Assembly (NCBI GenBank): GCA_030840585.1
Contig: JAVEEG010000254.1
Span: 1-54,195, forward strand
Reading direction: 5' to 3'
Source of the DNA: Frankiaceae bacterium
GTDB taxonomy: Bacteria > Actinomycetota > Actinomycetes > JAFAQI01
Length of the DNA stretch: 54,195 nt
Translations under genes and position numbers: made by a program
The notes under the pieces: model-generated
Told to the model about the DNA's origin: nothing
The model's input: only the letters and a program-made list of their open reading frames with translations
Database searches by the model: none
Shown here: positions 1 to 43,553 of the stretch, piece by piece
Layout of the letters: every line of letters starts with the position of its first letter
Position numbering within the stretch: the stretch's first letter is position 1

Positions 1-39
1 AGTGTGATGCCGAGGGCCCGGTAGAGTTCCGCGCGATCT

Positions 40-792: not shown

Positions 793-804
793 CAATCACT
801 ATCG

Positions 805-5726: not shown

Positions 5727-5898
5727 GAACCGTTCGCCGATTAGAGGCGCGTTCCGCTCCGCTCACCGCGCTCATCCGCCATAAGCCCGTGTCATGCCGC
5801 GAGCGAGAGCACCGCCTCTACCCAGCAGTTGCCGTGACCGGTCGCAGTTAGCGCGGGTATCGGGCCCCCGCTACTACTTCGCCCCCTACTCGCCCTCC

Positions 5899-5913
5899 AA
5901 TATGACGCATATT
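5899..5913. promoter_or_regulatory. palindrome AATATG-acg-CATATT in an AT-richer spacer upstream of 4905..5726
   Basis: Perfect 6-bp inverted repeat with a 3-bp spacer. It lies in the only AT-rich patch of the 5727-5985 intergenic region. Confidence 0.2.
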
Positions 5914-6061
5914 TCTAGGGGCAGATTGGGGAGGTCAATAGGAGCGTTCAGCAAGTAGAGCGACCGCACGGAAAGCGGCGGCGCGTCAGTCGATCCGATC
6001 TACCAACGACCTGATGTTGGCGACGCCGCTCAACTCTTCGCAGCGGGCAACCAACTCTTCC

Positions 6062-6727: not shown

Positions 6728-7092
6728 TTGGTGTCAACCCTCAACTAGTCGCCGAGAACCCCGGCATAGCCAGCATCGACGCCGCCCAAGTCAGAGTTGA
6801 GCCTTTGCGGTCACAAGACCCGAAAGCAACGTCGCCAACGGTGCGCGCCACGCTCGCGCGGTGCCAACGCTGACCATTCGGGCTGCGCGCGCGGGTGGTC
6901 GACAACCTCCAGGCAGTCATCGACTGGCTGCCGCAGATGGCTACGACCTGTCGGCGGTATCAGTCAGTACGACCTGTGTTCGCGGGCCGGAGGGCTCATC
7001 GTGTTCCGCGCTGCGCGAATCTGCCGACGTCCTTCGACGGTGCAAGCCGAGGCGGAGTGATGCCCGAGCGGTTCCGCGACCACGTACCCCAC

Positions 7093-8034: not shown

Positions 8035-8290
8035 CGCGGGTGTTCACTGTCGCGGTGATCCGCCGGGGGCTGGTTCGGGGCGGCGGTTGGTAGCGCTGGG
8101 TGCTGCCTTCGTCTTGAAGGCGAGTGCCCGCGAGTCCTTGCAGGTCACCGGGCGACCTGACACCAAAGGAGGGGATGGATAGCCAGGCATGGCTGCGTTG
8201 AGTGGGACCAAAGACCCTACTTAACTGTTGCTGGGCAGGTAGATCTGAGTTCGACGTCAGGTCCGTTGTACGTCCGTCGACAAGGCAGCC

Positions 8291-28076: not shown

Positions 28077-29837
28077 TCAGTCGGAGTTGGGCAGGCCCCA
28101 CTGGCAGTGCACGTGATTGCCGTGACCGCCGTACGGGTCGTACGCCGGGTCGTACACGACACTCGCGCCGTTGCTCCGGCACACCGACGCGACGAGCGAG
28201 TAGTTGCCACCACCGCTGACGCTGACCCCGTTGACGACAGTGATGTCGACCGCTTCGCCGCGGTAGTGCGACGAGCCGGGCGCGTGGCTGCCGCCGGCGA
28301 TCTCGCTGACCATGACCCGCGCGTTGCTGCCGAGCGCGCGCAGCGCGCGCAGGACCCGGATGTCGACCGGCGTGCTGCCACCCGGCGCGTTCTGGTACGC
28401 CGACCGCGGCGCCGAATGACCGGCGGCCAGCGCCTGCACGTCGCCCTTCGCGGTGGCGTTGTCACTGACCCCGCTTTCGTGCGCGGTCGCCAGCGAGATC
28501 CGGGTGCTGTGCAAGATGTCGTTGGCGACGCTCGCGACCGTTTCCAGCGAGGTGCTCTGTCGCCAGGTCCGCCCCCAACCGGCGGAGTACGACGCGTCGC
28601 CCGGTACGACGACCCGCAGGCTCGCGACCGCGGCGGTGGTCGGCTTCCAGGACACGCGGTACGACGTCCGCGTCGTCATGCGACCGGCCGCGACGACGGT
28701 CCACCGGGTGCCGATCAGTCTCATCAGGTTGACCCGCGCGCCGATGGCGCGACCGGGCGACACCGCCCCGGTGGTGACGACGTACTGGCCGAGGCGGATG
28801 GCCCGAGCCGACGACTCCGTGACCTTGCGGGCCACCCGAACCGTCGCGACCGACGTTGTCACGCCCGCGATGGCGTCGGCGGGATGCCGTACCACCAACG
28901 TGGCGGTGGCCGGGAGCTTCGTGGTCAGCGCAACCCGGCCGGTGCTCCCCGTCGTACCGGCAGCCGCGGTATGGAATGCGCCGGTGCCGACCCGGTAGAG
29001 CAGGACGACGCGGCGGGCCGGCAGCGCCCGGCCGAGTGTGTCGGTGAGCCGGGCCGTGACGTGCGTCGCGGCGCCGTAGGTCACCACCCGGACCGGCCAG
29101 GCGGCGACGGTCAGTCGGGCCGGCCGGCGCGGGGTGACCGCGGCGGTCGCGACGGCGGGTCCGGAGCCGGCGGCGTTGACCGCGGCGACGGAGAAGGTCG
29201 TCGTAACCCCGTTGACCAACCCACCGACGGACGCGAGGACCGCGCCGGCGGGGACGGTGACGGTCCGGCCCGACGGGTGGGCGGTGACGACGTAGTGCTG
29301 CACGGTGGCGCCGCCGTCCGAAGCCGGCGGCTGCCAGGACACGTTCGCGATGTGGTCCGCGGCGGCAACCCCGGTCAGGGTGACGGCCGTGGGAACGGTG
29401 CGCGGGGCACCGTCGGCGGTGGCCGCCGGACCAGTGCCGGCGGGGTTCGTGGCCGAGACAGTCACGGTGTAGTCGACGCCGTTGGTGAGCCCGGAGACCC
29501 GCGCGACTGTGGTCGCGGCGTCGGTCGCCATCGTCACCGGGACGGTCCCGTTCGCCGGATCGGCCGGCACGACTGCCATGTCGTACCCGGTGATCGCGCT
29601 GCCACCGTCGACCGCCGGCGGCGTCCAGCTGATCGCCAGGCCTCCCGGTTCGGCCTCGACGGTCACCGACGCGGGCGCGAGCGGCGCGCTGATCGGGTCC
29701 GGCACGTCGGCGTACGCCGAGGCCGGTGCGACCGCCGCGGCGACGACGGCCCCGACCAGAACGGTCGGCACCGCCCACAGCAGGCGGGTGCGGACGGGTC
29801 GCGGGCGGGGCAAGGCAGGCGACGTCCCAAAGGGCAC
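28077..29837 (-). CDS. secreted FN3-FN3-Ig-like protein with a C-terminal LAS/M15-type zinc peptidase (D-Ala-D-Ala carboxypeptidase-like) domain
   Basis: This is the lower third of the 1502-aa track ORF. GTG 29837 follows GGAG. A signal peptide (...LLWAVPTVLVGAVVAAAVAPASAYA) is present. Two 'W.PP..DGGS.ITGY / ATVQHY' FN3 units follow. The zinc motifs are 'SSHYRGEAVDI' and 'GNHVHCQW' (SxHxxGxAxD and HxH). Confidence 0.8.
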   Translation of the reverse strand: MPFGTSPALPRPRPVRTRLLWAVPTVLVGAVVAAAVAPASAYADVPDPISAPLAPASVTVEAEPGGLAISWTPPAVDGGSAITGYDMAVVPADPANGTVPVTMATDAATTVARVSGLTNGVDYTVTVSATNPAGTGPAATADGAPRTVPTAVTLTGVAAADHIANVSWQPPASDGGATVQHYVVTAHPSGRTVTVPAGAVLASVGGLVNGVTTTFSVAAVNAAGSGPAVATAAVTPRRPARLTVAAWPVRVVTYGAATHVTARLTDTLGRALPARRVVLLYRVGTGAFHTAAAGTTGSTGRVALTTKLPATATLVVRHPADAIAGVTTSVATVRVARKVTESSARAIRLGQYVVTTGAVSPGRAIGARVNLMRLIGTRWTVVAAGRMTTRTSYRVSWKPTTAAVASLRVVVPGDASYSAGWGRTWRQSTSLETVASVANDILHSTRISLATAHESGVSDNATAKGDVQALAAGHSAPRSAYQNAPGGSTPVDIRVLRALRALGSNARVMVSEIAGGSHAPGSSHYRGEAVDITVVNGVSVSGGGNYSLVASVCRSNGASVVYDPAYDPYGGHGNHVHCQWGLPNSD

Positions 29838-29850
29838 GAGGTAACTCCAG

Positions 29851-29880
29851 GAAAGGTTGGGTGGCGGAAAGGTTGGGTGG
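29851..29880. repeat. tandem direct repeat (gaaaggttgggtgg x2) just upstream of the M15 peptidase RBS
   Basis: Copies at 29851-29864 and 29867-29880 are identical 14-mers separated by 'cg'. On the coding (-) strand they read CCACCCAACCTTTC twice, ending 5 nt before the GGAG of the RBS. Confidence 0.6.
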
Positions 29881-30065
29881 GTTGTCGTTAACCCTGTCCC
29901 AATGTCCGGTTCGGGGTCGATAGTCCGATGTGCCCATTTACCCCGGCACCCGCAACGGGGGGTGCTGGCACACGTGGACGCGAACGCCGTGGACCGTCTA
30001 GTCCTCTTAGTTGGCTTACGACGTTTCCGCTGCGGCGAGTCTCGACCAGGCCGCATCGTTGAGCC

Positions 30066-30296
30066 GTGCCCGCGTGTGATGGCTGCCTCGGCGACACCTC
30101 GTGCTGGGTGTGCCTGGGCACCGGCGTGGTCGACGCGGCCGACGGCCCGACCCCGTGCCGCCGTTGTTACGGCTCCGGGCGCTGCTCGCTCTGCCAGGAG
30201 ATCGCGCTCGTCGAGATCGAGGAACCGCCGCTGTTCCGGCTCTGGCCGCCGGCCATCGGCCGCCGCCGGACCAGAACGCAGCCGCCGGCTCACTGA
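30066..30296 (+). CDS. small cysteine-rich protein with DnaJ-type CxxCxGxG zinc-finger repeats
   Basis: 76 aa. It has four CxxC units (CDGCLGD, CWVCLGTG, CRRCYGSG, CSLC). GC3 is clearly higher than in the overlapping frame. The GTG start has no obvious SD. Confidence 0.45.
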   Translation: MPACDGCLGDTSCWVCLGTGVVDAADGPTPCRRCYGSGRCSLCQEIALVEIEEPPLFRLWPPAIGRRRTRTQPPAH

Positions 30297-30446
30297 CGGG
30301 CGCCACCTTGGCCGGGAGGCGGCACTCGGGCCGGGCTGATCCCCTAACTCGGCCGACACATTCCGGCGCCCCACTAGCGAATCGTGCGTTCGCGGACAGC
30401 GCGTGCGACTTGACCGCACTACGGTCGCGATCAAGGAGGTCTCGCC

Positions 30447-33400
30447 ATGGTCAGCATCAAGATCCCGTCCGAGCCTTTGGTTCGTGGCGGGACTGTCACC
30501 TTCACGGCTAAGGCGGATGCAGACGAAACGCTGACCTGGACGGCCGGACCGCCGGGCGCTGCGACGATCGATGCCAACACGGGCGACCTCACCGTCGAGG
30601 ATCGGCCCGCGGCGCCGTACGTCACGGTCGAGGTGCACGCCAAGAAGCCCGACGGCAAACCCTCGGGGACTGACTCGGCCAAGGTCGGCATCACTCTCGA
30701 GTGGCCGGAGGACTGGCCGTATCTCTCCGACGGGGGATTGCCATGGTTCAGCGACTCGGCGAGCAAGGGCGCGATTCCATGGGCGGACGGCGGTAACGAG
30801 GCAAAGGCCGACCGGCTGCGAATCATCCTCTGGGACCTGGTCGACCAACTCCCGCAAGGAGTACGTGACGCACTCGGGCCGGTCCCGTTCGTGCGTGTCA
30901 CGTGGGTGAACGACAACCGGGGGGGCATCGCGATCGCGCTGCCTAGCGGGGGCGCCGTCGCCGTCAACGACACCTGCTTCACCGCACTCACGGCGGACAG
31001 CCCGAAAATCGAGCCGGCCGACGAGAACATCGTCGGCCTTCTCGCACACGAGCTCGGGCACATGGTCATGTCCGGGCTGCTCGGACCGGCAGTGTGGTTC
31101 AAAGCGTTGGCGAGCCTCACCGTGGCGATCCTCGAAGTAGTCGGCGCGGCGTTCGGCGAGTACGAGGCGATCATGCACGGCGTGCTGGTCGTGCCGCCCT
31201 TCCCCAAGATCGCCGAGATTGTTCTGCGGACGAGCATCTGGGGCTGGGGCGACGAGATGTCGGATTACGCCAGCAAGGGCGGATGGCAGGTGCCCAGCCT
31301 CGTCGGATTCGACGTCCCGTTGCTCAACCTGCTCTTCCCCTGGCTGGCCGCGGAAGCGCCGAACGGACTTACCGCGTGGGCCAGTCTCAACCCCAAGCAG
31401 CCGGGACTTCCGATCCCGCTGACGAACACCACGTTCGACGCGGCGACTGTGCTCGCGCTCAATCCGGCAGATCCCAACTATGCGACCAACCTCGGCAAGG
31501 CCGGCGTGCCGACGCCGTACGCCGCGACGAACCCGCACGAGGACTTCGCCGAAACGTTCGCGCGGCTGTTGCTCGGCGCGAAGTACCACGGAACGAACGC
31601 GGTCGAGCCGAGCAAGGATCGGCGCGACTACTTCATCCGCAAGGGCCTGCTGGTCGACCACCCGGGCACACCGACCTTCATCCAGGGCGCGCACGTCGCG
31701 GGCACCCTTGTGCCCGACTCGGCCGCGCCGCCGAGCTGGCGTCTCGCCGCGCGGGCCAAGCCGAAACCGAAACAGGCCCGGCACGTCATGGCGGCGGCCG
31801 AGTTCGACCCGGACAAGTTCGACGAGGCTCTGCTCAAGTGGTACGACGGGCCGGAACGGCGGATCGAGGACGCCCGCGCCATCCTCGCCAAGCTGCCGCG
31901 CCCGCCGGCCGAAGCAGCGCCGCTGCCGTTCCTCGCCGCGGCCGAGATGCACGGAGACGGCCTCGCCCGCTACCGCGGCGTGGAGCATCCGCTCGATCCG
32001 GGCGCGTTGCTCACGTCGGACGACCAGCGGGTCTGGCTCGCGACCCGCGTCGACGAGCAGCGCCGGGTCACCACCGTCATCGGTGACCCGGGAGGCGAGA
32101 CGCTGCCGGCCGGCGGCAATCTCCCGCAGACCGACCGCGACGCGCTCGTCCTGCATTGGCAACCGGACGCGACCCCGCGCGACTGGGCGGCGGGTGGCCA
32201 GCCGTTGTCGCCCAACTACGCGGATGTCGACGCCGCGCTCGCGCAGCTCGTGCCGCTGTGGGGCCGGACGGACACCGACAACTTCTTCGTCGCGGCGCTG
32301 CACGCGAGTGGCCTGGCGGACGCGGACAAGGACACTGGCCTGCCGAAGGAGCCGTGCGGACGCGACGTGCTGGCCTACTGCGAGACGCACGGCGACGGGC
32401 TGGTCCGTTACGAGCCGGGCGTCGGTGTCGCCGTCGGTGACTTCGCCCTCCTGTACGGCGGCACCGCGTGGGGCGTCGTCACCCGGGTGACTCCGGACGG
32501 CACTCCGGTCGACGTGCTCGTCGGTGACCCCACACATATTCCAGGGCTGGTCGGCGAGGAGCCGGACGCGGTCAAGCTGCGGCACGGGTTGGACCTCACG
32601 GCGCTACCCGTGTACGCCGCCGACAGCGACGACGTTCTTCGTCGGCGCGCACTCAACGCCACCCATCCGCTGGACGTCGACCACATCTGGCGGCCAGCAG
32701 CGACGACCCGCCGTTACGTCACCGAGGAGGCCCCCGTGTCCGACGCGTTCGAGAACCTCAACCTGGCTCTCAACCATCTCGTCAGTCACGTCGGGCTCGA
32801 CTACTTGGAGCGCCAGGGCGAGACCACGCAGACCGGCAACACCGACATGGTCTGGGCCTCGGTCGGGTTGCTGCTCGAACGCGGTGCGACGGCGGACGCG
32901 CGAAAGCGGTTGCGCGGTTTCCACGGCTCGGAGCGGGAGGTTAGGGACTCCCGATTCTTCTACGGCACATTGTCGTCGGGCGGGCCGGTGCAACCCGGCG
33001 ACGTCATCGGCTGGCGCACCAAGGGGGGGACCGCCGAAGGCGTCGTACTCACGGTCGACGGCGGCGAGGCGACGCGGGTTTTCACCCAGGGCAAGCAGTT
33101 CGTCGTACGCGACGATCGGGTGCCGGCCGAGTCGGTGGTCTGGGCCTGGACGCCGTCGGCGACGCCGCGTGAACTCGTCGACGATCCGGCGATCGCGGCG
33201 TTCTACGGAGATCCGTCGGCGCTGGAGCGGCTCGTCAATCTGCGCAGCACCGCGGCCATCCCTTACGAGGACCACAACTACGGCGGCGAGTCGTACACGT
33301 GCTTCTACACCAAGCCCGATGGATTCGTCCGGCTGCTGTCGCTCAACGCCCCGGACGACGTCCGCAAGGCGCTGTGGGCAGATACGGACACAGAGTTCGC

Positions 33401-33656
33401 CGGCCTGCGTGCGGCGCTCGACCACTTCGGTGCAGGGGTGCAGCCGTATCAGCCCGGTACGGCGGTTCCGCACGGCGCGTGGCTACTCGGAAAATCGACG
33501 ATCCGGGTGGTCTTGCTGACCACGCCGAAGGGTGAGCCGGCGCTGGTGCTCACGCCGGGCGTTGAGGCGCTGGCTGACCCGGGGATCTGGATCGATGAAC
33601 CACCGGCGCACGGCTTGACCGAGATGTGGGTGCCCTCGGTCAAGCCGCGCAAGTAG
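30447..33656 (+). CDS. large leaderless zincin-like metallopeptidase-domain protein with an N-terminal Ig-like (Big_2-like) segment and four C-terminal repeats
   Basis: ATG follows CAAGGAGG. 'GGTVTFTAKAD...TIDANTGDLTV' is Ig-like. 'LLAHELGHMV' encodes HExxH at 31047-31061. 'NPHEDFAETFA' (31536-31559) is a candidate third zinc ligand. Four repeats carry the signature 'HGDGL.RY.PG...G.V..V'. Confidence 0.8.
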   Translation: MVSIKIPSEPLVRGGTVTFTAKADADETLTWTAGPPGAATIDANTGDLTVEDRPAAPYVTVEVHAKKPDGKPSGTDSAKVGITLEWPEDWPYLSDGGLPWFSDSASKGAIPWADGGNEAKADRLRIILWDLVDQLPQGVRDALGPVPFVRVTWVNDNRGGIAIALPSGGAVAVNDTCFTALTADSPKIEPADENIVGLLAHELGHMVMSGLLGPAVWFKALASLTVAILEVVGAAFGEYEAIMHGVLVVPPFPKIAEIVLRTSIWGWGDEMSDYASKGGWQVPSLVGFDVPLLNLLFPWLAAEAPNGLTAWASLNPKQPGLPIPLTNTTFDAATVLALNPADPNYATNLGKAGVPTPYAATNPHEDFAETFARLLLGAKYHGTNAVEPSKDRRDYFIRKGLLVDHPGTPTFIQGAHVAGTLVPDSAAPPSWRLAARAKPKPKQARHVMAAAEFDPDKFDEALLKWYDGPERRIEDARAILAKLPRPPAEAAPLPFLAAAEMHGDGLARYRGVEHPLDPGALLTSDDQRVWLATRVDEQRRVTTVIGDPGGETLPAGGNLPQTDRDALVLHWQPDATPRDWAAGGQPLSPNYADVDAALAQLVPLWGRTDTDNFFVAALHASGLADADKDTGLPKEPCGRDVLAYCETHGDGLVRYEPGVGVAVGDFALLYGGTAWGVVTRVTPDGTPVDVLVGDPTHIPGLVGEEPDAVKLRHGLDLTALPVYAADSDDVLRRRALNATHPLDVDHIWRPAATTRRYVTEEAPVSDAFENLNLALNHLVSHVGLDYLERQGETTQTGNTDMVWASVGLLLERGATADARKRLRGFHGSEREVRDSRFFYGTLSSGGPVQPGDVIGWRTKGGTAEGVVLTVDGGEATRVFTQGKQFVVRDDRVPAESVVWAWTPSATPRELVDDPAIAAFYGDPSALERLVNLRSTAAIPYEDHNYGGESYTCFYTKPDGFVRLLSLNAPDDVRKALWADTDTEFAGLRAALDHFGAGVQPYQPGTAVPHGAWLLGKSTIRVVLLTTPKGEPALVLTPGVEALADPGIWIDEPPAHGLTEMWVPSVKPRK

Positions 33657-33702: not shown

Positions 33703-36642
33703 TTAGCGACTGATCACGAGATTCCATCGGCGGCTGAGCAGCCCGGCACCGACAAGCACCAGGCCGGCGATCGACAGCGCCGCCGAGCCACCGCTGTTCG
33801 CGAGCGACCCACCGCTGCCGCTGGCCGACGGCCCGGACGGCTTCGGCGGCAGCTTCGCGGACGTCCCGCTGGCGGCCAGCGGGTAGACCCAGACACCACG
33901 GCCGTACGTCGCCGCGACGAGGTCCTTGCGATCGGCGGAGAAGTTGATGCCGAACACCCGGACCGTCGGCATCCCGGTACCGAGCTTCTGCCACACCGTG
34001 CTGCCGACCTTCGCGGTGAACACGCCGTAGTCGGTCGCGGCGTAGACCCGGCCGCCGGCCACCTTGATGTCCCACACGTTGCCGCGCGGCAGGTTGCCGG
34101 ACACGTCGGTGACGTGGTCGCCCGCGTCGGTGCTCATCAGCACCCGCGGTGCCGCGGCGCCGCCGAAGTCGACCCGGATGACGCTCGGCGTGATGGTCGC
34201 GATGTAGACGCGCTTCACGTTGGTCGGGTCGGCGGCGACACCGTAGATCTCCCGGGCCGGCATCCCCTTCAACTGCGCGAAGTGCCAGCAGTCAGTGCTG
34301 CCGGTCTTCGCCGTACAGCCGGGCTTGACGTTCGTCGCGAGGGCGCGGTCGAGCGATCCGATCGGCGCCTTCACCGACGACTGGCAGGCGCCACAGGCAC
34401 CGATGTACATGTACGCGCCGTTGACGTCACTGGCTTCGGCGAGCCGGCCGACCCCGTTCGGCGCGGTGCCGAGGTCGAAGACCTGCACCCAGTCACCGGT
34501 GTTGGTGGCGCCGTCGCCACCATCCGTGTCTGCACCCTTCGTCGACTCGTAGACGACCGACGTGGCGAGCACGAGGTGCTTGCTGTCGAACGGATCCATC
34601 GCCGACCCGCCCGGCTCGAACACCGGCTCACCACACGCCGACGTCAGCGGGCAAGGGTCGATCTCGCTCGTCGTCTTGCCGCCGTCGGTCGTGACGTACG
34701 TTGCGCCGTTCGCATTGCAGTAGAAGATGTTCGGGTTGTCCTTGTCGACGCCGACCCAGGTGCCGTCGCCGCCGCAGATCTCGTAGGAGTTGTTGCTGCC
34801 GGGCGGGTAGAAGTTGGTGCCGTTGTCCTGCAGGCCGGCGATGATCTCGCCGTTGCTGCCCTCGACTGCGCGGTACGGCAGCAACTGGTTGAGGTGTGCC
34901 GCCGACGTCCACGCGCCGTTCTGGAACGACGAGCCGGACGCGTGGTCCTGAAGGAACGCGCCGCCGTCGTTGCCGATCCACAACCGCGTCGCGCCGCTGC
35001 CCTTGTCGACCACGGCCACGCCGTGCTGGTCGGGGTGCGTCACCTGACCGCCGTACGGCCCGCCGCCCGGGCAACTCCCCGACGGGACAGCAGGCGTCGT
35101 GACGATGCCGCACGCGGAGACGTACGCGTCGATCGACTCGAACGGCACCGGCTTGAGCACCCCGCCCGTCGGCGGCGTCGTAATCGTCGCGTCGACGAGG
35201 CTCTGGTAGACCTCTTCCTCGCCAATCAGCAGGCGATTTCCGTTGGGATCAAAGGCGATCCAGCCGTTGTACCAAGCCTGGACGCCGGTGTCGTAGCCGA
35301 GCAGGCTGGCCGCGGAGAGCGCTGCCTGGACGCTGCCGGGCGACGCCGTCAGCGACTCCGAGGTCGCGATCTCGTCCCATGTCCCACCGTCGTCGGCCGA
35401 ACGGTAGACACCGTTCAGGCTGGTCGGGTGCGGGATGCCGAGCGGGTCGTACGGGTCGTACGCCGCGGCGAGGCCGGTGGAGCGGTGGCCGGCGTCGGCG
35501 ACGAGCGCGAACAGGTACTTGCCGTCGGGCGAGAACGTGAGCCGGGTCCGGCCGATCGGGTCACTGGAGATGTGACCGTACGGCTGCTCCCAGCCGGTGG
35601 TGGTGCTGGTGACGTTGATGCGGTGGAACGATCCGACCGCGCCGCTCGTGGTCGATGAGTAGAGACCGTTGCCCGGCGCCGCCTTCGACGTCGTGCCGTC
35701 CGGGTGGGTGATGGTCACGTTGCCGGCGACGTAGCCGACCGCGGCGAACACGGTGTAGGCGCCGTTGGATCCCGGCTTGATGACGACGTCCGAGGTCCAC
35801 GATCCGACCGGCGTATCGGTGGCCGGGCCGGTGCCGGCGGCGTTGGTCGGCAGCCGTACGTCGGACCACGTCACCCCGTGGGTGGTGGACCTGAACAGAC
35901 CGCCTGTCGTCGCGGCGAAGACCGTGCCGTCGGGGCCAACCGCTACCTGCTGACCGGCGCCGCGCACCGACGTCGCGGAGGGGTGCCAGGTCGCGCCGCC
36001 GTCATGGGAGTAGTAGGCACCGAGGCCGCCGTACTCGCCGCCGCCCTGGAAGCCCTGGCCGGTGATCGCGTAGACGTTCAAGTGATTGGTCGGGTCGACG
36101 GCCACCGCGGCCACCGGCATCGCCGGGATGCCGGCCGCGGCGGTCCACGACGCGCCGCCGTTGGTGGTCTTGTAGACACCGCCGCCGGTGCCGGCGTAGG
36201 CGACGTCGCCGGTCGTGCTGGTCGGGTCGGTGGCGAGCGCGAGGACGATGCCGGTGGTCGGGAACCGGCCCTCGCTGGTCGCGTAGTTGGGGTCGTTGAG
36301 CAGCTGACCGGTCGGGCCGATCTGGCGCCACGGGTGGGCGTTGGGGGCGAGACCGGCGGCGGCCGCCTTGGCCAGCGCTCCCTGGTCGAACGCGACCGGG
36401 TCGGCGTCCGGCGGCGCGGTGGACAGCGCCATCGCGTCCTTCGCGCCCAGCAACGGCCGGGCCTCGCGGTGGAACACCCGGTCGATCTGCTGCTGATCCT
36501 GCGCTCGCGCGCTCGACCGCGCTGCGCTGGGCGCGGCAGATGGCGCCGCTACCGGTACGGCGGTCGCGGCGCTCGCCACCAGTGCCAGGGCTCCGGTCGT
36601 GATCAGCATGAGGGGCAGTCGTCGTACGGTCACATCAGCCAC
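33703..36642 (-). CDS. cell-wall-anchored Asp-box (BNR) beta-propeller protein, sortilin/GH74-like
   Basis: Repeats include 'TTNGGASW', 'SHDGGATW', 'STTHGVTW', 'SADDGGTW' and 'TTDGGKT'. The C-terminal sorting signal is 'LANSG' (33790-33804) followed by a hydrophobic helix and 'RRW'. The start (GTG 36642 or 36633, just before a signal peptide) is approximate; the track ORF runs to 36726. Confidence 0.85.
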   Translation of the reverse strand: MADVTVRRLPLMLITTGALALVASAATAVPVAAPSAAPSAARSSARAQDQQQIDRVFHREARPLLGAKDAMALSTAPPDADPVAFDQGALAKAAAAGLAPNAHPWRQIGPTGQLLNDPNYATSEGRFPTTGIVLALATDPTSTTGDVAYAGTGGGVYKTTNGGASWTAAAGIPAMPVAAVAVDPTNHLNVYAITGQGFQGGGEYGGLGAYYSHDGGATWHPSATSVRGAGQQVAVGPDGTVFAATTGGLFRSTTHGVTWSDVRLPTNAAGTGPATDTPVGSWTSDVVIKPGSNGAYTVFAAVGYVAGNVTITHPDGTTSKAAPGNGLYSSTTSGAVGSFHRINVTSTTTGWEQPYGHISSDPIGRTRLTFSPDGKYLFALVADAGHRSTGLAAAYDPYDPLGIPHPTSLNGVYRSADDGGTWDEIATSESLTASPGSVQAALSAASLLGYDTGVQAWYNGWIAFDPNGNRLLIGEEEVYQSLVDATITTPPTGGVLKPVPFESIDAYVSACGIVTTPAVPSGSCPGGGPYGGQVTHPDQHGVAVVDKGSGATRLWIGNDGGAFLQDHASGSSFQNGAWTSAAHLNQLLPYRAVEGSNGEIIAGLQDNGTNFYPPGSNNSYEICGGDGTWVGVDKDNPNIFYCNANGATYVTTDGGKTTSEIDPCPLTSACGEPVFEPGGSAMDPFDSKHLVLATSVVYESTKGADTDGGDGATNTGDWVQVFDLGTAPNGVGRLAEASDVNGAYMYIGACGACQSSVKAPIGSLDRALATNVKPGCTAKTGSTDCWHFAQLKGMPAREIYGVAADPTNVKRVYIATITPSVIRVDFGGAAAPRVLMSTDAGDHVTDVSGNLPRGNVWDIKVAGGRVYAATDYGVFTAKVGSTVWQKLGTGMPTVRVFGINFSADRKDLVAATYGRGVWVYPLAASGTSAKLPPKPSGPSASGSGGSLANSGGSAALSIAGLVLVGAGLLSRRWNLVISR

Positions 36643-36796
36643 AAGCCCTACTTCTCCGGCCGCGCTGGGCGACCTGCTTGGCACAATCGCGCGAGATGGA
36701 TCTGACGTCGGAGTAAGAAACGCCACCCCACGCCTGACTCATAACCCCGCGCTGGCAGGTTGCAAACTTCGAACAGCCGAGACCGAGGAGGCCGCG

Positions 36797-37336: not shown

Positions 37337-39133
37337 CTAGTGGCAGGGGTAGTACTCGTACGTCATGTGCGTGCCCCAGGTGAACACGGCGCCGGCTGCG
37401 ATGCTCTGGTAGACGATCTTGTCGGTGTCGGTGATACCCGACGGTCTCGTCGACGTGCACGTCGTGCCGAACGGTCCTAGCGCTTTGATGCTCGGCTTGT
37501 CGGAATCGGTCGGCGCGGACGGCGAACACGTGTTCCCGCAGCCGTACGCGTTGTAGTAGTTCGGCATGTACCGCGTCGTGTCTCGCACCGTCCAGGTGAA
37601 CGAGCGGCTCGCCGTCGCCTTGCCGTCGGAAACCATTGCGGTGAGCCGGAAAACCCGGCTCTTGATGCTCGTGTAGTTCGTGGTGACCGAGGCGGCCGAA
37701 ACGCTGATCGTGCCCGAGATGACACCGGTGCTGCGGTTCAGCGACAACCCGGCCGGTAATGCGCCGGACAACGCGTACGTCAGCGAGTTGTGATCCGCGT
37801 CGGCACCGGCGAGCCGAAGGCTCACCGACTTCCGCTCGTTGGTGGTCTGCGCTGCCACCGCGGTCAACGTCGGCGCGTGGTTGCCCGCGGCCGGCGCAGT
37901 GGATCCGGATGGCACCACCGGAACGCTCGATGACGCGGGTGTCGTTGGCGGGGTCGATGGCGCGTGCTTCGTCGCGGTCGAGCGCGGCGAAGGCTTGTGC
38001 GCGACCGGCGACGTCGACGTTGCGCCAGACGACGGCGACGTACTCGACACCGGAGTGCCTTGCGCCAACTGACGGGCACCGTGATGCCACGGCTGCGCGA
38101 TCGCGACACCGGTTATGGCGGCGATCGCAGCGGCCGCGGTGACGATCGCGACGACGCGCCGGCGTGCATGCGGAGTCGGCCCCGGCTGCGGCGGCAGCAT
38201 CGGCGTGGCCCGGCCGCGGCGTCCGATGACGGTCGCCGGATCCGTCTGTTCCCCATTGGCATCGACCGGGTCGCTTGCCGGCGCGACCACGCCGGCGATC
38301 GCCAGCGCAGGCGCATCCGCACCGGCCGCGCGCAGCGCATCGACCAACTCCGCGCCGAACTCCGCCGCCGAACGCGGCCGGTCCGCCGCGTCCTTCGCCA
38401 GCGCGCGATCGATGACGGCGGCAGCGGACTGCGGTACGCCGAACTCGGCCAGCGACGGTGCCGGCTGCGTCGTGATCCGCGCGATGAGCTCCGGCATCCC
38501 GCCCGGGCCGCTGACAAATGGCGAGTGCCCGGCGATGAGTGTGTAGAGCGTCGACGCTAACGAGTAGACGTCGCTCGACGCGGTCGCCGGCCGGCCACTC
38601 AGGATCTCGGGGGCGGCATGCGAGAGCGTCGCGGCCACGGCCGCGGTCGTCGTCGAACTACCGGTCAGCGTCGCGATGCCGAAGTCGCTGATCTTCGCTT
38701 CGCCGTAGTTGCCGAGCAGCACGTTGTCGGGCTTGACGTCGCGATGGATGACACCGGCACGGTGCGCGGTCTCCAGCGCACCGGAGAGCTGGACACCGAA
38801 CCGGAACGCCTCCTGCCAGCTCGCCGAGCCGATCCGCTCGGCGAGGGTGCCGCCGGTGACGAGTTCCATCACGAAGACCGGCATGCCTGAACTGGTACGG
38901 GCGATCGAGTAGACGTTGACGATGTGCGGGTGCGGCGGCAGCGCGGCGACCGCACGGCGCTCCCGATCGAACCGGCGCTCGGCGTCGTCGTCGAGCCTGG
39001 TCTCGATGACCTTCAACGCGACTCGACGGCCAAAGGCCGGATCGTGCGCGCCGTACACGGTGCCGAAGCCGCCTTGCCCAAGCAGTGTGAGGTCGCGGTA
39101 ACCGAGCCCGACAAGTTCGTCGTAGCTAGCCAC
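37337..39133 (-). CDS. transmembrane Ser/Thr protein kinase with extracellular Ig-like (He_PIG-type) and PASTA-like domains
   Basis: GTG 39133 follows AGAGGA; the track ORF runs to 39205. Kinase motifs: 'LGQGGFGTVY', 'VALKVI', 'HRDVKPDNVLL', 'DFGIA', 'APE'. A TM helix 'VVAIVTAAAAIAAITGVAIA' follows. The ectodomain has 'LPAGLSLNRSTGVISGT' and a C-terminal 'IVYQSIAAGAVFTWGTHMTYEYY'. Confidence 0.9.
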   Translation of the reverse strand: MASYDELVGLGYRDLTLLGQGGFGTVYGAHDPAFGRRVALKVIETRLDDDAERRFDRERRAVAALPPHPHIVNVYSIARTSSGMPVFVMELVTGGTLAERIGSASWQEAFRFGVQLSGALETAHRAGVIHRDVKPDNVLLGNYGEAKISDFGIATLTGSSTTTAAVAATLSHAAPEILSGRPATASSDVYSLASTLYTLIAGHSPFVSGPGGMPELIARITTQPAPSLAEFGVPQSAAAVIDRALAKDAADRPRSAAEFGAELVDALRAAGADAPALAIAGVVAPASDPVDANGEQTDPATVIGRRGRATPMLPPQPGPTPHARRRVVAIVTAAAAIAAITGVAIAQPWHHGARQLAQGTPVSSTSPSSGATSTSPVAHKPSPRSTATKHAPSTPPTTPASSSVPVVPSGSTAPAAGNHAPTLTAVAAQTTNERKSVSLRLAGADADHNSLTYALSGALPAGLSLNRSTGVISGTISVSAASVTTNYTSIKSRVFRLTAMVSDGKATASRSFTWTVRDTTRYMPNYYNAYGCGNTCSPSAPTDSDKPSIKALGPFGTTCTSTRPSGITDTDKIVYQSIAAGAVFTWGTHMTYEYYPCH

Positions 39134-39266
39134 ACCGCATCCTCTCGCGCGGGCACCAACCGTTGCGGGTGCCGGTGAACGCACGATAAGCGGACTCCGG
39201 GACACAAGGAGGGCGAATCGTCGAATTCACGTCCGGTCAGGCGCGGGTAGCGCAGACTTGCCCGCA

Positions 39267-42200
39267 ATGGACCTCTGGATGCGCGTCGAGGCGTCGGACA
39301 CGCCGGCCCGTGATGTCGCCGTCGAGTGCAGCCCGGAGAACACCGTCGAGCAGCTGCTCGGCGCGCTGCGCGAGCATCTGCGGCTCGACCTCGCTACGGC
39401 GGCGATCACGCGCACCGGCGAGCGGCTTTCGCCGCGGGCGACGTTGCAGGACGCGGGGCTGCGATCCGGCGACACCTTGCGACCGCGGGTCACGCCGGTG
39501 CGCGGCGGGCCGGCGCATCGCCTCGTCGTCGCCGGCGGCGTGGACGTGGGGCAGTCAGCCGACCTCGATACGTCGACCGGCGAGGTCACGATCGGCCGGG
39601 GCAACCGCGCCGGCCTTCGGGTCCACGACAGCACCGTCTCGTCGCTGCACGCTCGGCTGCGCCGAACACCTGACGGCTACACCGTCGAAGATCTCGGTTC
39701 GTCCAACGGCACGTTCGTCAACGGCGTCCCGGTTACCGGCGCAGTCGCGGTCGAGGTGGGTGACCTCGTCGAGGTCGGCGACGTCGCGCTGCGGATCGCC
39801 GCGGCACCGATGCCGCCGCCGCCGATCCCGCTGAGCGAGGGCCGGCTGCAGTTCACCCGCGGGCCGCGAGTGAGCCGGGCCAATGCGACGACGGTGTTCG
39901 AAGTGCCGGCGCCGCCGGAAGAGCCGACGAAACGTCGGTTCGCGCTGTCGACCGCGCTGGTCCCGCTGGCGATCGCGCCGGTGATGGCACTGATCACCCA
40001 CCAGATCTCCTACCTCGCGATGGCCGCGCTCTCGCCGCTGATCGCCGTCGCGTCGGTAGTCGAGGATCGGCGGCACGGCAGCAAGGACCACGGCAAGAAG
40101 GTCGATGCGTTCCGCCGCGCGGTCGACTCGGCGAGCACGTCGATGGCCGAGTCGGTACAAGACGAGACCGTGGCGCGCTGGTTGGCCTTTCCGGACCCAG
40201 CCGACATCGTCCGGCGGACCACCGGGCCGGCCGCGGATCTGTGGGAGCGACGGCTCGCCGATCCCGACGCGCTCGCGCTTCGGGTCGGTTGGGGCGACCT
40301 GCCGGCGTCGGCTCGATGGGCGATGCGCGAGGGCGGCGAGCAACAGCTGCGCGACGAGGCCGCTGGAGCACTCGGGCAGCACGGCGTCGTACGTTCCGCA
40401 CCCGCCACGGTCACGTTGAAGACCACGCCGGTCGTCGGCGTGAGCGGATCGACCGACGACGTGGACGAGACCGCTCGGTGGCTGGTCGCGCAGGCCGCCG
40501 CACTGCACAGCCCGCGCGAACTGAGCGTCGTCGTCGCGGTCGGCGATGCGCGCGCGGACGCGTGGGAGTGGGCAGCGTGGCTGCCGCACTGCCGCGAAGC
40601 CGACGCGCCGGAGGGCTCGATGGCGACCGTCGCTGTCGGCGGTGCGGAAGCAATCGCCGCGGTCGGCGCGCTCAATGACCTTGTGTCGCAACGGATCCGG
40701 CAGCGCGATGACCGGTCGGCGGCTAAGGCTCCGTCCGCCGCCGTGCTCGCGGTGATCGATCACCGGGCCGGTGTGCCGGCACCGCTGGTCACCGATCTGC
40801 TCGAACGCGGCCCCGGTGCCGGCGTGCATGTCATCTGGCTCGGCGAGTCACGTACGTCGTTGCCGGGCGAGACCTCCGCGATCGTCGACATCCGCGAGCG
40901 GACCGTGTCGGTGACGACCGTCGCCGGCGGCGCCGGTGTCAGCGAGGCGATGCGCGACCGCTGCCCGCCGGAGCTCGCCGCGGACGTCGCTCGCGCACTC
41001 GCCGGTGTCCGCGACGCGTCGGCGCGCAACGCGGTGCGCGGTGACCTGCCAGCCGCGGTCTCGCTGTCGACGGTGCTCGGTGGCATCGACGTCGACCGCA
41101 TCGTTACGGCGTGGACCCGCGACCACCGCAAGCTCGATGCGCCGCTCGGTCTTGGCGAGCACGGCGTCTTCTCCGTCGACCTGCGCCACGACGGGCCGCA
41201 CGGCCTACTCGGCGGTACGACGGGCGCCGGCAAGTCGGAGTTGCTGCAAACGTTGATCGCGTCATTGGCGGCGCGGCACCCACCGACCCGGCTGACGTTC
41301 CTGCTGGTCGACTACAAGGGTGGTGCGGCGTTCAAGGACTGCGTGCATCTCCCGCACGTCGTCGGCTTCGTTACCGACCTCGGCGGCGCGCTGGTGAACC
41401 GCGCGCTGGTGTCGCTCGGTGCCGAGGTACACCGGCGCGAACGGCTGCTCGCCGAGGCCGGCGCGAAGGACCTGCTCGACATGGAACGCATCGCGCCCGA
41501 CCGCGCGCCGGCCAGCCTGCTGGTCGTGGTCGACGAGTTCGCGACCCTCGCGAAGGAACTGCCGGAGTTCGTCGACGGTGTCGTCAACATCGCGCAGCGC
41601 GGACGCTCGCTCGGCGTACATCTGATCCTCGCCACCCAGCGGCCCGCGGGTGTCGTCAACGACAACATCCGGGCGAACACGAACATGCGGATCGCGTTGC
41701 GGATGAACGACGAAACCGACTCACGTGACGTCGTCGGCGTACCCGATGCGGCCCGGTTGCCGCGCAGCATTCCCGGCCGGGCTTACGTGCGCACCGGTGC
41801 CGGCGAGCTCGCGCTCGTGCAGGTCGCCTTTGCCGGCGCGACCGATGCACCCAGTGCCGAAGCCAGCACGATCGTCGTCGCCGACATCGAGCGCGGCCGG
41901 GTGGTCCATCGGGACCGCACCATCACTACCGCGGCGCCGGCGGCGTCTGGCAGCACCGATCTCGAACGTGTCGTCGCCGCGAGTGTGGCCGGCGCGGACA
42001 AGCTGGCGCTGCCGGCACCAGTGACGCCGTGGCTGCCGCCATTGCCGGATCTGGTCCGGCTCGACGACCTCGACGGCGCGGGGATCGGTCTCGTCGACGT
42101 ACCCGCGCAGCAGCGGCAGGTGCCGTACGCCGTCAACCTGCAAACCGACGGAAACCTGTTGGTACTCGGTGCTTCCGGCGCCGGCAAGACCACGTTGCTG

Positions 42201-43553
42201 CGCACCCTGGCGGTCTCGCTCGCGCGCCAGCACTCCCCCGCCGACCTGCATCTGTACGCGCTGGACTTCGCCTCGCGCGGTTTGCGCACCCTCGCCGCGC
42301 TGCCGCACTGCGGGGCCGTCGTCGCCGGTGACGACGTCGACCGGATCGCGCGCATGTTCACGACGCTGCGCCGGTGGATCGAGGAGCGTCGGCGGCGGTT
42401 CGCCGAGACCGGCGCCACGTCCGTCGACGAGTACGCGCGCCTCAACGCTCACGCCGCGCCGATGCCAAGGGTCGTCGTCATGCTCGACGGCTACTCGGGC
42501 TTCGCCTCGGCGTTCGAGAAGGTCGAGCACGGCGCGCTGATCGACGAGCTGCCGCGGTTGGTCGGTGACGGTCATGCAGTCGGCGTTCACTTCGTCATCA
42601 CCGCGAACCGGCGCAACGCGTTGCCGCCGAGCCTCGCCGCACTCATCTCGACCTCGATCGTCTTCCGGCTGGCCGACGCCGACGACTACAGCGCCGCCGG
42701 TCTCGACGCGCGGTTGCTGAAAGGCGCCACGCTGCCACCGGGCCGCGGGTACCAAGCCGGTACGACGACCGAACTGCAGTGCGCGGTCGTAGGCATCGAT
42801 GCAAGCGGTGACGCGCAGCAGGCCGCGGTCTCCGCGATCGCCGCCGACCTCGTCGCCCGATGGCCGGGCCAGCAGGCGCCACCGGTCGCGACGTTGCCCG
42901 ACACCGTCCCGCGGCGCGACGTCGCCGGGCTGTCGCGGTCATTGCGTCCGGTCGTCGGCATCGGCGAGCGGGAGTTGGCGCCGGTCGCGATCGATCTCGA
43001 AGAAGCGCACTTCTTCGTGGCCGGCCCGATCCGATCCGGCAAGTCCGCTGCACTCGCTGCCCTAGCGCTCGGGCTTCGGGAAGCGGATCCGGATCTGCGA
43101 CTCGTCCTGCTGGCACCGCGGCGATCGCCGTTGACATCGTTGACGATCTGGTCGGCACTCGCCCGCACGGACGACGACATCACCGCGTTGTGCGAGCAAC
43201 TCGAACAGACCGCATCGGACAGCACCGCCGAGCCCACTGTCGTCGTACTTGACGACGGGCAAGAACTACTTGACAGCGCGGCGAGCGGCAGCCTGGAGAT
43301 GATGGCGCGGCGCGGTCGGGACACAACGTTGCGCCTCGTTGCCGCGTGCGACATCACCGCCGCGTTGCGCGCGTACGGCGGTTGGGTCGGCGAGCTGAAG
43401 AAGGACCGGCACGGCCTGCTGCTGCAGCCGGATGCGGACAACGACGGCGATCTGTTCGGGCTTCGATTGCCGCAGCTGCGGACCAATCCGCCAGGGCGGG
43501 GTTACCTAGTCACTCGATTTGGCGCAGAGCCAGTACAGGTCGCGCAATCGTGA
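39267..43553 (+). CDS. EssC/EccC-like type VII secretion ATPase: ubiquitin-like + FHA + 2 TM + three FtsK/SpoIIIE P-loop modules
   Basis: The ORF is open from TTG 39258. ATG 39267 was chosen, and ATG 39279 is also possible. The FHA segment is 'GEVTIGRGN..SSLHARL..DLGSSNGTFVNG'. Walker A motifs lie at 41211-41237 (GGTTGAGKS), 42169-42195 (GASGAGKTT) and 43023-43046 (GPIRSGKS). Walker B is 'LLVVVDEF'. Confidence 0.9.
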   Translation: MDLWMRVEASDTPARDVAVECSPENTVEQLLGALREHLRLDLATAAITRTGERLSPRATLQDAGLRSGDTLRPRVTPVRGGPAHRLVVAGGVDVGQSADLDTSTGEVTIGRGNRAGLRVHDSTVSSLHARLRRTPDGYTVEDLGSSNGTFVNGVPVTGAVAVEVGDLVEVGDVALRIAAAPMPPPPIPLSEGRLQFTRGPRVSRANATTVFEVPAPPEEPTKRRFALSTALVPLAIAPVMALITHQISYLAMAALSPLIAVASVVEDRRHGSKDHGKKVDAFRRAVDSASTSMAESVQDETVARWLAFPDPADIVRRTTGPAADLWERRLADPDALALRVGWGDLPASARWAMREGGEQQLRDEAAGALGQHGVVRSAPATVTLKTTPVVGVSGSTDDVDETARWLVAQAAALHSPRELSVVVAVGDARADAWEWAAWLPHCREADAPEGSMATVAVGGAEAIAAVGALNDLVSQRIRQRDDRSAAKAPSAAVLAVIDHRAGVPAPLVTDLLERGPGAGVHVIWLGESRTSLPGETSAIVDIRERTVSVTTVAGGAGVSEAMRDRCPPELAADVARALAGVRDASARNAVRGDLPAAVSLSTVLGGIDVDRIVTAWTRDHRKLDAPLGLGEHGVFSVDLRHDGPHGLLGGTTGAGKSELLQTLIASLAARHPPTRLTFLLVDYKGGAAFKDCVHLPHVVGFVTDLGGALVNRALVSLGAEVHRRERLLAEAGAKDLLDMERIAPDRAPASLLVVVDEFATLAKELPEFVDGVVNIAQRGRSLGVHLILATQRPAGVVNDNIRANTNMRIALRMNDETDSRDVVGVPDAARLPRSIPGRAYVRTGAGELALVQVAFAGATDAPSAEASTIVVADIERGRVVHRDRTITTAAPAASGSTDLERVVAASVAGADKLALPAPVTPWLPPLPDLVRLDDLDGAGIGLVDVPAQQRQVPYAVNLQTDGNLLVLGASGAGKTTLLRTLAVSLARQHSPADLHLYALDFASRGLRTLAALPHCGAVVAGDDVDRIARMFTTLRRWIEERRRRFAETGATSVDEYARLNAHAAPMPRVVVMLDGYSGFASAFEKVEHGALIDELPRLVGDGHAVGVHFVITANRRNALPPSLAALISTSIVFRLADADDYSAAGLDARLLKGATLPPGRGYQAGTTTELQCAVVGIDASGDAQQAAVSAIAADLVARWPGQQAPPVATLPDTVPRRDVAGLSRSLRPVVGIGERELAPVAIDLEEAHFFVAGPIRSGKSAALAALALGLREADPDLRLVLLAPRRSPLTSLTIWSALARTDDDITALCEQLEQTASDSTAEPTVVVLDDGQELLDSAASGSLEMMARRGRDTTLRLVAACDITAALRAYGGWVGELKKDRHGLLLQPDADNDGDLFGLRLPQLRTNPPGRGYLVTRFGAEPVQVAQS

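Follow-up and report, generated by a model that had tools for sequence, protein, structure and literature searches.

A predicted leaderless glutamate-zincin with a split active site and four C-terminal repeats represents a rare protein family outside Pfam and NCBIfam

What kind of protein combines an HExxH motif, a possible third zinc ligand placed far downstream of it, no signal peptide and a long repetitive C-terminal half? This question is raised by a 54 195-nucleotide stretch of a Frankiaceae bacterium (assembly GCA_030840585.1, contig JAVEEG010000254.1, positions 1 to 54,195 of the forward strand; hereafter the window), in which a plus-strand open reading frame (ORF) at 30447–33656 had been singled out, in a sequence-only reading, as encoding a leaderless zincin with a split active site and four C-terminal repeats. 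We are fairly confident that this is a real gene encoding a glutamate-zincin (gluzincin) of the branch that holds Peptidase_Mx and lethal factor, that the split of the active site is shared by its whole family, that the four repeats are homologous to each other and that the modules of the protein are functionally coupled. Judged by its sequence, the protein founds a rare family outside Pfam and NCBIfam.

No Pfam or NCBIfam model reached its cut-off anywhere on the 1069-aa protein. The weak matches that could be seen were to Peptidase_Mx (15.1 bits, cut-off 27), Peptidase_Mx1 (13.4 bits, cut-off 25.6) and the NCBIfam model TIGR04549 (11.4 bits, cut-off 75), all three at residues 350–380, and to Peptidase_M48 at residues 167–229 (12.6 bits, cut-off 20.3, E 0.12). 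A word-index protein search returned three close orthologues only, irrespective of whether the single protein or a 29-member alignment was used as query, and these orthologues were 77–80% identical to the window protein over its full length. An exhaustive HMMER search through 1.84 billion cluster representatives gave 73 proteins at E ≤ 1e-3, with 17 at E ≤ 1e-30, and the best score of a Peptidase_Mx-type Pfam model among these 73 relatives (E 0.0002) was still under cut-off. The named relatives are all annotated as 'hypothetical protein' and come from a Solirubrobacteraceae metagenome-assembled genome (MAG), from Aurantimonas/Mangrovibrevibacter (Alphaproteobacteria, WP_256811875.1) and from Hyalangium rubrum (Myxococcota, WP_321549922.1), so that the relatives traceable to an organism belong to the Thermoleophilia, Alphaproteobacteria and Myxococcota. 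A scan of 185,579 species genomes yielded one real relative, in a Thermoleophilaceae MAG, with three short motif-only matches being disregarded, and the GC contents of the relatives' loci ranged from 45% to 74%. No match to the family was found by tblastn in 72,556 plasmids and 50,697 phages, nor in IMG/VR and two metagenome scans, and the full-length profile gave a chance match only among PDB sequences. When eight diverse members were compared with PADLOC and PHROGs, no match was obtained, and the identity of a known defence or phage protein was rejected on that ground.

The catalytic domain was identified by structure prediction, profile comparison and conservation in combination. An AlphaFold2 (AF2) run covering residues 86–745, using a 58-sequence alignment, gave a mean predicted local distance difference test (pLDDT) of 83.3 and a predicted template modelling score (pTM) of 0.60, with pLDDT values of 90–97 around the HExxH and Tyr/Glu motifs. 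The HExxH motif was found on a model helix at pLDDT 93–97, and E365 on a helix formed by residues 363–379 at pLDDT 96–97. In a Foldseek search of the PDB the top match of this model was 4L7A, a putative zinc metallopeptidase of the Peptidase_Mx type from Bacteroides (probability 0.98–0.99, E about 0.01), with an alignment of 326–328 columns spanning the whole 260-residue chain; the zincins that followed, including deuterolysin, selecase, SPRTN, ZMPSTE24, MATCAP and EryP, were all weak matches, and a Foldseek search of BFVD gave nothing significant, with a phage 'Lethal factor' model among its weak matches. The profile of the domain also matched 4L7A among PDB sequences (E 0.0012), followed by 9URD (E 0.036) and the lethal factor chain 2L0R (E 1.8), with all three matches located on a '...G-x-x-S-x-Y-A-x5-E-D-F-A-E' helix. 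The segment from Y358 to E365 aligned to '...YAGSKPSEDIAE' of 4L7A and, in a weak match, to lethal factor, with the Tyr being placed seven residues ahead of the Glu in the window protein as in 4L7A, and the stretch HEDFAETF that contains the Glu was found at residues 364–371 (31536–31559). Across 29 aligned members, which except for the three close orthologues have only 23–32% identity to the query, residues H201, E202, H205, D269, W280, P305, Y358 and E365 were invariant, and N306, D366 and A368 were conserved in at least 90%. Invariance of the catalytic residues at such low overall identity marks purifying selection on catalysis. The proposal of a zincin having a distal Glu of the lethal factor type was thereby borne out, through the Peptidase_Mx/4L7A fold match, the Y-x6-E helix and the conservation, and the predicted structure recovered a zincin fold around HELGH. 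The relationship to DUF4157-type zincins, which had been suggested as an alternative, was not supported; Pfam DUF4157 gave no match to the window protein even at E up to 10, and none among the 73 relatives.

It had also been remarked that the distal Glu lies unusually far from the HExxH motif, and the comparison with 4L7A agreed well with this. The distance from the first His of HExxH to the Glu ligand was 164 residues in the window protein, compared to 53 as counted in the aligned sequence of 4L7A. Among 35 family members the spacing was 133–210 residues, with a median of 166, and because the spacing was long in all 35, the split is a property of the whole family. In the model, the HExxH helix continues directly into a hydrophobic stretch as one single 54-residue helix (residues 190–243), with a return helix at residues 252–261, this hairpin having pLDDT values of 59–75. 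It is followed by a conserved core consisting of D269-x2-S...G-W280, P305-N306 and N327, and then by the Tyr/Glu helix, with S272 and G279 being conserved among the closer relatives. The insert of 30 of the 35 members had 18 or more successive uncharged residues, the runs often being 25–62 residues long. Gly, Ala and Pro are abundant in these runs, whose length differs greatly between members, and the hydrophobicity value KD19 of the insert was 1.78 in the window protein, with relatives reaching 2.5. Because of this large variation in length, a hairpin that is membrane-embedded, interfacial or non-globular is favoured over a packed core.

The C-terminal part of the protein had been divided by eye into four helix-plus-barrel repeats (here R1 to R4) without any assignable family, and profile comparisons confirmed that the four are mutually homologous. 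Profiles made from four orthologues matched well only for R1–R2 (84%, E 7e-6), with the other repeat pairs being weak. With family-wide profiles containing 20–39 members each, from which members with overlapping coordinates had been removed, all six pairs scored 94.3–98.8% in hhalign with E-values of 1e-7 to 8e-17 (R1–R2 98.8%, R2–R4 98.3%, R2–R3 97.5%, R1–R4 97.1%, R3–R4 96.4% and R1–R3 94.3%), while each repeat profile compared as a control with the zincin profile gave at most 0.3%. The helical part of the unit consists of about three helices, one of them conserved with the motif Y-x-D-L...L-W-G, and is followed by [E]-x-H-G-x-G-L, a V-G-D turn, a small barrel of 4–5 strands (with G-V-V-T-R-V and D-V-L) and a terminal W-x-P. 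In the model of R2, helices at residues 594–604, 613–621 and 638–647 precede four strands. R1 aligned only to the C-terminal two-thirds of R2, and the linker in front of R1 was modeled with helices at residues 442–450, 455–466 and 469–480, with low pLDDT at residues 425–450. Within R1, G503 and G505 were invariant and E500 and H502 at least 90% conserved in the 29-member alignment. The invariant residues of R2 were W605, G606, G649 and G664, and the position of the His varied, which makes a catalytic role of the repeats unlikely.

As for the fold of the repeats, either an SH3-like or an NlpC/CHAP-like barrel had been suggested, and of these the former was retained at low confidence and the latter rejected. 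The repeats have no conserved Cys/His pair that could be catalytic, Pfam gave no match on those of the window protein, and Foldseek gave no papain-like match; a weak CHAP match (E 1.5e-4), not placed within the protein concerned, was seen in one of 73 relatives. The model has four strands by DSSP after the GD turn, as seen within residues 86–745 and not in an isolated repeat, and the barrel matches given by Foldseek, to the Sgf29 tandem Tudor domain and the N-terminal barrels (crown) of F1-ATPase, had probabilities of 0.06–0.08 only. With low confidence, the models would be in line with a generic small SH3/Tudor-like barrel. Among PDB sequences the repeat profile gave faint matches to designed double-psi barrels (E 0.016). 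It can also be mentioned that the segment 'G-x-G-[LI]-x-x-[YF] ... V-G-D-x-V' at 32394–32444 (residues 650–666), together with its equivalent in R1, faintly aligned (E 0.016–0.27) to both halves of the designed double-psi barrels derived from Cdc48-type N domains. At the level of sequence, this hints at a GD-box-like supersecondary resemblance and not at homology.

Mapping of these segments onto the family revealed a modular organization. Proteins of about 780 aa had the architecture Ig-zincin-R1R2, those of about 1070–1260 aa Ig-zincin-R1R2R3R4, and those of about 500 aa Ig-zincin alone, and there were also repeat-only proteins, being either R1R2 alone (about 290 aa) or R3R4 alone (about 290–456 aa). 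Pfam revealed no extra domains in the large variant architectures. At two loci, L008 and L009, the gene was split into adjacent genes for Ig-zincin and for R1R2, and at two others a gene ending in R1R2 was followed by one for R3R4, with a 4-nt overlap in L007 and a distance of 10 nt in L010. For a physical cooperation of the repeats with the protease, this pattern of fusion and fission is the strongest evidence.

Two groups of relatives had lost the catalytic residues. Low-GC forms of about 1000 aa (P0028, P0041, P0056 and P0058) lacked both HExxH and the Glu, and kept the hydrophobic insert, the D..GW and PN motifs and R1R2. Forms of about 1500 aa (P0031, which is the H. rubrum protein, P0037 and P0048) contained a degenerate copy of the zincin domain (residues 370–620, hhalign 97.6%) with the catalytic residues lost, and also carried an unrelated N-terminal HEWxH segment (residues ~170–205) and several repeat units. 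In locus L010, from the low-GC MAG GCA_964590975.1, three tightly packed genes were found at 3175–9368, with a Peptidase_S8 gene first, then one for a 1022-aa relative having neither HExxH nor the Glu and with hairpin and R1R2 kept, and finally a stand-alone R3R4 gene. This trio may represent a pseudo-protease working with a serine protease.

That the plus-strand ORF is a real gene and the long ORF on the opposite strand its shadow had been argued from a strong Shine-Dalgarno-like sequence and motif content, and the argument held. In addition to that sequence (CAAGGAGG), codon-position GC and homology carried the case. In the window, which has a GC content of 0.64–0.73, i.e. high GC, the ORF had 0.70/0.50/0.87 GC at its three codon positions, uniformly in 300-nt windows. 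In tblastx against the orthologous locus L001, similarity extended from 30446/30447 to 33668 with none outside, and because it begins there, the start codon is fixed at the ATG at 30447. The opposing minus-strand ORF, spanning 28077–32585, had a coding-type GC pattern only from 28077 to about 29900. From about 30200 to 32585 the GC-rich position of its frame was codon position 1 (0.83–0.91), which is an antisense signature of the plus-strand gene. The long minus-strand ORF thus joins a real FN3 gene to a shadow. The sequence features listed in the sequence-only reading were all present, at the positions given there or a few bases off. A promoter and terminator scan gave no promoter-like site for the gene, and a single terminator-like hairpin, which lay inside its coding sequence, with 1.7 expected by chance.

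At the N-terminus, an Ig-like domain and the lack of a leader had both been proposed, and both proved correct as far as prediction and inspection can tell. A first AF2 run of the full-length protein, made with 4 sequences and having a pLDDT of 32, was used for this domain only, and its model 1 gave a beta-sandwich of 8 strands in residues 1–83 with pLDDT 56–82. The sole Pfam matches to residues 1–85 were faint (Cadherin and RibLong, E about 0.03), with a weak Big_2 match also being seen in the N-terminus of one family member. No signal peptide was visible upon inspection of the N-termini of the window protein and 75 other proteins, and the N-terminus of the window protein, where the Ig-like domain starts from residue 1, had no lipobox. 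The coordinates of all features are given in Table 1.

Table 1. Positions of the gene, its ribosome-binding site, the opposing shadow ORF and the predicted domains and motifs in the window.
Feature	Position	Strand	Basis
Complete coding sequence, 1069 aa and stop codon	30447..33656	+	ORF list, codon-position GC, homology to L001
Shine-Dalgarno-like CAAGGAGG, 7-nt spacer to ATG	30432..30439	+	Read from sequence
Shadow part of 1502-aa minus-strand ORF, non-coding	29941..32585	-	Antisense-type codon-position GC pattern
Ig-like beta-sandwich, residues 1–85, from residue 1 (predicted)	30447..30701	+	AF2 model 1, faint Pfam matches
Glutamate-zincin catalytic domain, residues 86–410 (predicted)	30702..31676	+	AF2 pLDDT, Foldseek, profile, weak Pfam
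HELGH, H201/E202/H205, predicted two zinc ligands and general base	31047..31061	+	Invariant in 29-member and 20-member alignments
Hydrophobic helical hairpin insert, residues 206–262, continuous with HExxH helix (predicted)	31062..31232	+	AF2, hydrophobicity
Insert core D269-x2-S272 ... G279-W280	31251..31286	+	Conservation; pLDDT 90–92
Helix Y358-x6-E365-D-F-A-E369, predicted third zinc ligand and putative transition-state Tyr	31518..31553	+	Conservation, 4L7A alignment
Linker, residues 411–485; helical second half probably the helical part of repeat unit 1	31677..31901	+	AF2
R1, residues 486–585: E500-x-H502-G-x-G-L, small beta barrel, W571-x-P573	31902..32201	+	hhalign; pLDDT 92–96
R2, residues 586–745: three helices, H648-G-D-G-L ... 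V-G-D665 ... GVVTRV barrel	32202..32681	+	hhalign, AF2
R3, residues 746–905	32682..33161	+	hhalign; R3R4 also as stand-alone proteins
R4, residues 906–1069	33162..33653	+	hhalign

Comparing the protein with known systems, its nearest solved relatives by structure and by profile are the Peptidase_Mx/Mx1 families (PF15887/PF15890; 4L7A, BACCAC_01431) and the TIGR04549-type lipoprotein 9URD, with TIGR04549 standing for 'substrate import-associated zinc metallohydrolase lipoprotein'. The likeness lies in HExxH and a '...Y-A-x5-E-D-[FI]-A-E' helix having identical Y-x6-E spacing, and these families are likewise without a characterised substrate. As seen from the TIGR04549 name and the chain lengths, however, they are Bacteroidota lipoproteins of about 260–330 residues, whereas the window protein has neither signal peptide nor lipobox, adds an Ig-like domain and four repeats, and has the roughly threefold longer spacing noted above. 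With lethal factor/ATLF (MEROPS M34) it shares the glutamate-zincin logic and, on an 'E-x-x-A-E' helix, a Tyr that precedes the Glu by seven residues; in anthrax lethal factor these residues are Y728 and E735, in EFFAEAF. It differs in giving no Pfam ATLF match and only the profile match of E 1.8, with lethal factor not being among the top 50 Foldseek PDB matches listed. The distance from HExxH to Glu in lethal factor is about 45 residues, and lethal factor is a secreted toxin with a PA-binding domain. The third comparison concerns HtpX, Ste24 and Oma1 (MEROPS M48), in which hydrophobic segments are likewise found between the HExxH helix and the Glu-ligand helix; E. coli HtpX has H139ExxH143, two hydrophobic segments and then E222. 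The matches to this group were not significant (Pfam as given above; Foldseek to ZMPSTE24, E 3.3), and the window protein has no N-terminal transmembrane helices, a borderline hydrophobic stretch, a Glu helix of the lethal factor/Mx type with its preceding Tyr, and an entirely different domain context. The repeats, finally, would resemble SH3/Tudor/KOW-like and GD-box cradle-loop barrels in ending, as modeled, with a small barrel of 4–5 strands having a 'V-G-D-x-V' turn, but those families lack the approximately three N-terminal helices, the E-x-H-G-x-G-L and the W-x-P, and none gave a significant match. The catalytic logic is known already, and what is new is the family, the position and nature of the insert within the Mx/lethal factor branch, the repeat domain and the fused, split and degenerate architectures.

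How, then, might such a protein function? We tentatively favor, at a little less than an even chance, an active glutamate-zincin metallopeptidase whose hydrophobic insert holds the active site at the surface of a membrane, with the Ig and repeat modules being non-catalytic. As predicted from conservation and model, Zn2+ would be held by H201, H205 and E365, with E202 activating water as general base. By analogy, Y358, which precedes E365 by seven residues as does its counterpart in lethal factor and Peptidase_Mx, may stabilize the transition state. The HExxH and Tyr/Glu helices would belong to one fold with about 110 extra residues between them. The hairpin would reach into the membrane from its cytoplasmic side or rest on that surface, the window protein perhaps being held only loosely there; this side is chosen because signal peptides were seen in no member. 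Recognition of substrate or partner, or control of access to the active site, would be the task of the Ig-like domain and the repeats. As they are encoded by adjacent, translationally coupled genes in other genomes, Ig domain, repeats and protease would make up one working unit.

A number of points weigh against this membrane-surface protease. The placement of E365 near H201 and H205 is suggested by conservation and by the Foldseek alignment, not by a measured distance. K219 and E230 interrupt the hydrophobic stretch in the window protein and in two of the three orthologues close to it, P0003 among them; the window protein's insert has at most 13 uncharged residues in a row and a KD19 of only 1.78, and a true transmembrane hairpin is doubtful for this protein for those reasons. 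About 5–8 family members show little hydrophobicity in the insert, with a hydrophobic stretch being wholly absent from a few, and the confidence of AF2 is lowest in the hairpin itself. An Ig-like domain is, moreover, unusual for a cytoplasmic bacterial protein, and since the relatives lacking HExxH and Glu keep scaffold and repeats, proteolysis is not all that the architecture can do.

The protein might instead be a soluble cytoplasmic metallopeptidase, in which the insert is either a helical hairpin buried in the protein or a lid packed on the repeats and gating the active site. We consider this doubtful, although it stands foremost among the rivals. The charges in the hydrophobic stretches, including K254 and E257 in addition to the two residues named above, the shortness of the uncharged run, the weak hydrophobicity of the insert in several members and the lack of a signal peptide in every member would all fit, as would the two-domain AF2 model of pTM 0.60, in which the active-site helix is prolonged into the insert. 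Against it stand the long Gly/Ala/Pro-rich uncharged runs and high KD19 values of most members, the wide variation in run length, which is atypical of a packed protein core, and again the low AF2 confidence in the insert. At the other extreme, the protein might be a non-catalytic scaffold, i.e. a pseudo-protease with its HExxH as a relic. The two sub-lineages that have lost HExxH and Glu with fold and repeats kept (P0028/41/56/58 and P0031/37/48) give this some substance, but the invariance of H201, E202, H205, Y358 and E365 in the window protein and the 29 aligned members makes it very improbable, and we rank it last. The same dead lineages, keeping hairpin, D..S..GW..PN core, repeats and an adjoining R3R4 gene, would point to a platform rather than to proteolysis alone, and lead to a bolder idea that we regard as rather unlikely: the zincin scaffold with hairpin and repeat would be an unrecognised ancient two-part machine, with the repeat as a new fold family, functioning as a recognition or assembly platform at the membrane surface, with its ligand also being cut in most lineages, the present one included. 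E500-x-H502 of R1, which is nearly invariant, might then act on the zinc site as a switch within the same molecule.

The remaining two alternatives rest on genomic context. The protein could be a leaderless effector exported by way of the nearby FtsK/SpoIIIE (T7-like) ATPase, or by another non-Sec route, and acting on the cell wall or on other cells, which we consider improbable and place second among the rivals. Its neighbours include secreted or surface proteins, namely an FN3 protein that has LAS/M15-like motifs and a BNR protein whose tail resembles a sorting signal, Ig-like domains are typical of extracytoplasmic proteins, and a 1431-aa FHA-FtsK/SpoIIIE multi-ATPase protein is encoded 5.6 kb downstream (39258–43553, plus strand). 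PG_binding_1 and Peptidase_S8 genes are also found near the homologue of L014, and a Peptidase_S8 gene directly precedes that of L010. However, Pfam detected no EccB, EccD, mycosin or WXG100 in the window around the ATPase gene, so that this locus is not a recognisable complete type VII secretion system (T7SS). The window protein has no WXG/LXG N-terminal domain, its N-terminus being a beta-sandwich, and no YxxxD/E motif was seen when its C-terminal residues were read by eye, without a motif scan. The neighbourhoods of the window and of L001, L002, L011, L013, L014 and L016, five of these having 3–10 kb of flank, were wholly different, with pairwise tblastx finding no neighbour common to the window and the other loci nor among the latter. 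No FHA-FtsK/SpoIIIE-type ATPase was present among the annotated genes of L001, L010, L013, L014 and L016 or the ten largest ORFs of L002. Alphaproteobacteria (L016, among hemCDXY housekeeping genes) and Myxococcota, in which a T7SS is not expected, have members of the family as well. The data therefore gave no support to the suggested connection with a T7-like exporter and secreted cell-wall neighbours, nor to a co-occurrence of orthologues with such a locus. Still somewhat less probable, in our view, is a stand-alone conflict gene, i.e. an anti-phage defence protease or a toxin, with the repeats sensing an invader or holding the protease inactive. That the gene stands by itself in surroundings that are unrelated even for orthologues with 78% identity, that its spread across phyla is patchy and that the protein is large, multi-domain and leaderless could all be understood in such terms, as could the position of the L001 copy, which adjoins a TraG fragment and is 2.4 kb away from genes for SNF2 and DEAD/MZB helicases such as occur in DISARM-type systems. 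The absence of matches in PADLOC, PHROGs, plasmids, phages and IMG/VR speaks against it, no candidate immunity gene is conserved beside the gene, and other loci are neighbourhoods of an ordinary housekeeping kind. The genes around the homologues included a LuxR-STAND regulator, NmrA and a tyrosinase/hemocyanin-like gene in L002, BrkB and a response regulator in L011, an S41 peptidase in L013, P450 with the PG_binding_1 and S8 peptidase genes in L014, and YggT and ppa in addition to hemCDXY in L016.

With this protein, the glutamate-zincins gain a distinct family in which none of about 1000 residues is covered by Pfam or NCBIfam. Its catalytic fold would tolerate a variable and largely hydrophobic insert of 80–160 residues between the two metal-binding helices, at an insertion point known for the membrane proteases of the M48 type but not for the lethal factor/Peptidase_Mx branch. 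It also brings a new repeat domain of about 150 residues that can be fused, duplicated in two or four copies or encoded by separate adjacent genes, with this fusion and fission arguing for a physical partnership with the protease. The pseudo-protease lineages constitute a natural separation-of-function experiment, and the cultured hosts (Aurantimonas/Mangrovibrevibacter and H. rubrum) make the family directly studiable, with uncertain pay-off.

Some further observations concern the surroundings of the gene. The L001 copy, a 78%-identical orthologue, lies within 1–9909 of that locus just downstream of a 71-aa TraG-D_C fragment, with the large SNF2 and DEAD/Helicase_C/MZB(DUF1998) genes close by; this is a setting like that of a defence island or mobile element, unlike the window. 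In the window, a 76-aa ORF with GTG start and a GC3 of 0.91 is found at 30066–30296 (plus strand), 150 nt upstream of the ATG. It has four CxxC pairs, including two of the DnaJ-type CxxCxGxG (CWVCLGTG and CRRCYGSG), and probably codes for a real small zinc-finger protein. Its co-occurrence with the zincin gene, raised earlier as a possibility, was not seen, as no such ORF was found upstream of the homologues in L001, L002, L011, L013, L014 and L016. The other neighbours include a GGDEF-EAL protein, an alcohol dehydrogenase and an FtsX/ABC pair, with the FN3 protein upstream and a BNR/sortilin-like surface protein downstream, and also a Ser/Thr kinase, the FHA-FtsK/SpoIIIE ATPase, LemA, DUF2207 and UPF0182. 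The real part of the minus-strand FN3 gene (28077 to ~29940) encodes a signal peptide and two FN3 domains (Pfam E 1e-22), and its C-terminus has SxHxxGxAxD ... HxH motifs that resemble LAS/M15 D-Ala-D-Ala peptidases by reading, with Pfam making no call there. The Ser/Thr kinase gene (37337–39205, minus strand), whose product has a He_PIG Ig domain, is divergent from the ATPase gene. The BNR/sortilin-like protein of 1007 aa (33703–36726, minus strand) is encoded convergently with the zincin gene, with 46 nt between the stop codons, and its C-terminus contains LANSG, a hydrophobic stretch and RRW, resembling an actinobacterial sortase signal of the LAxTG type.

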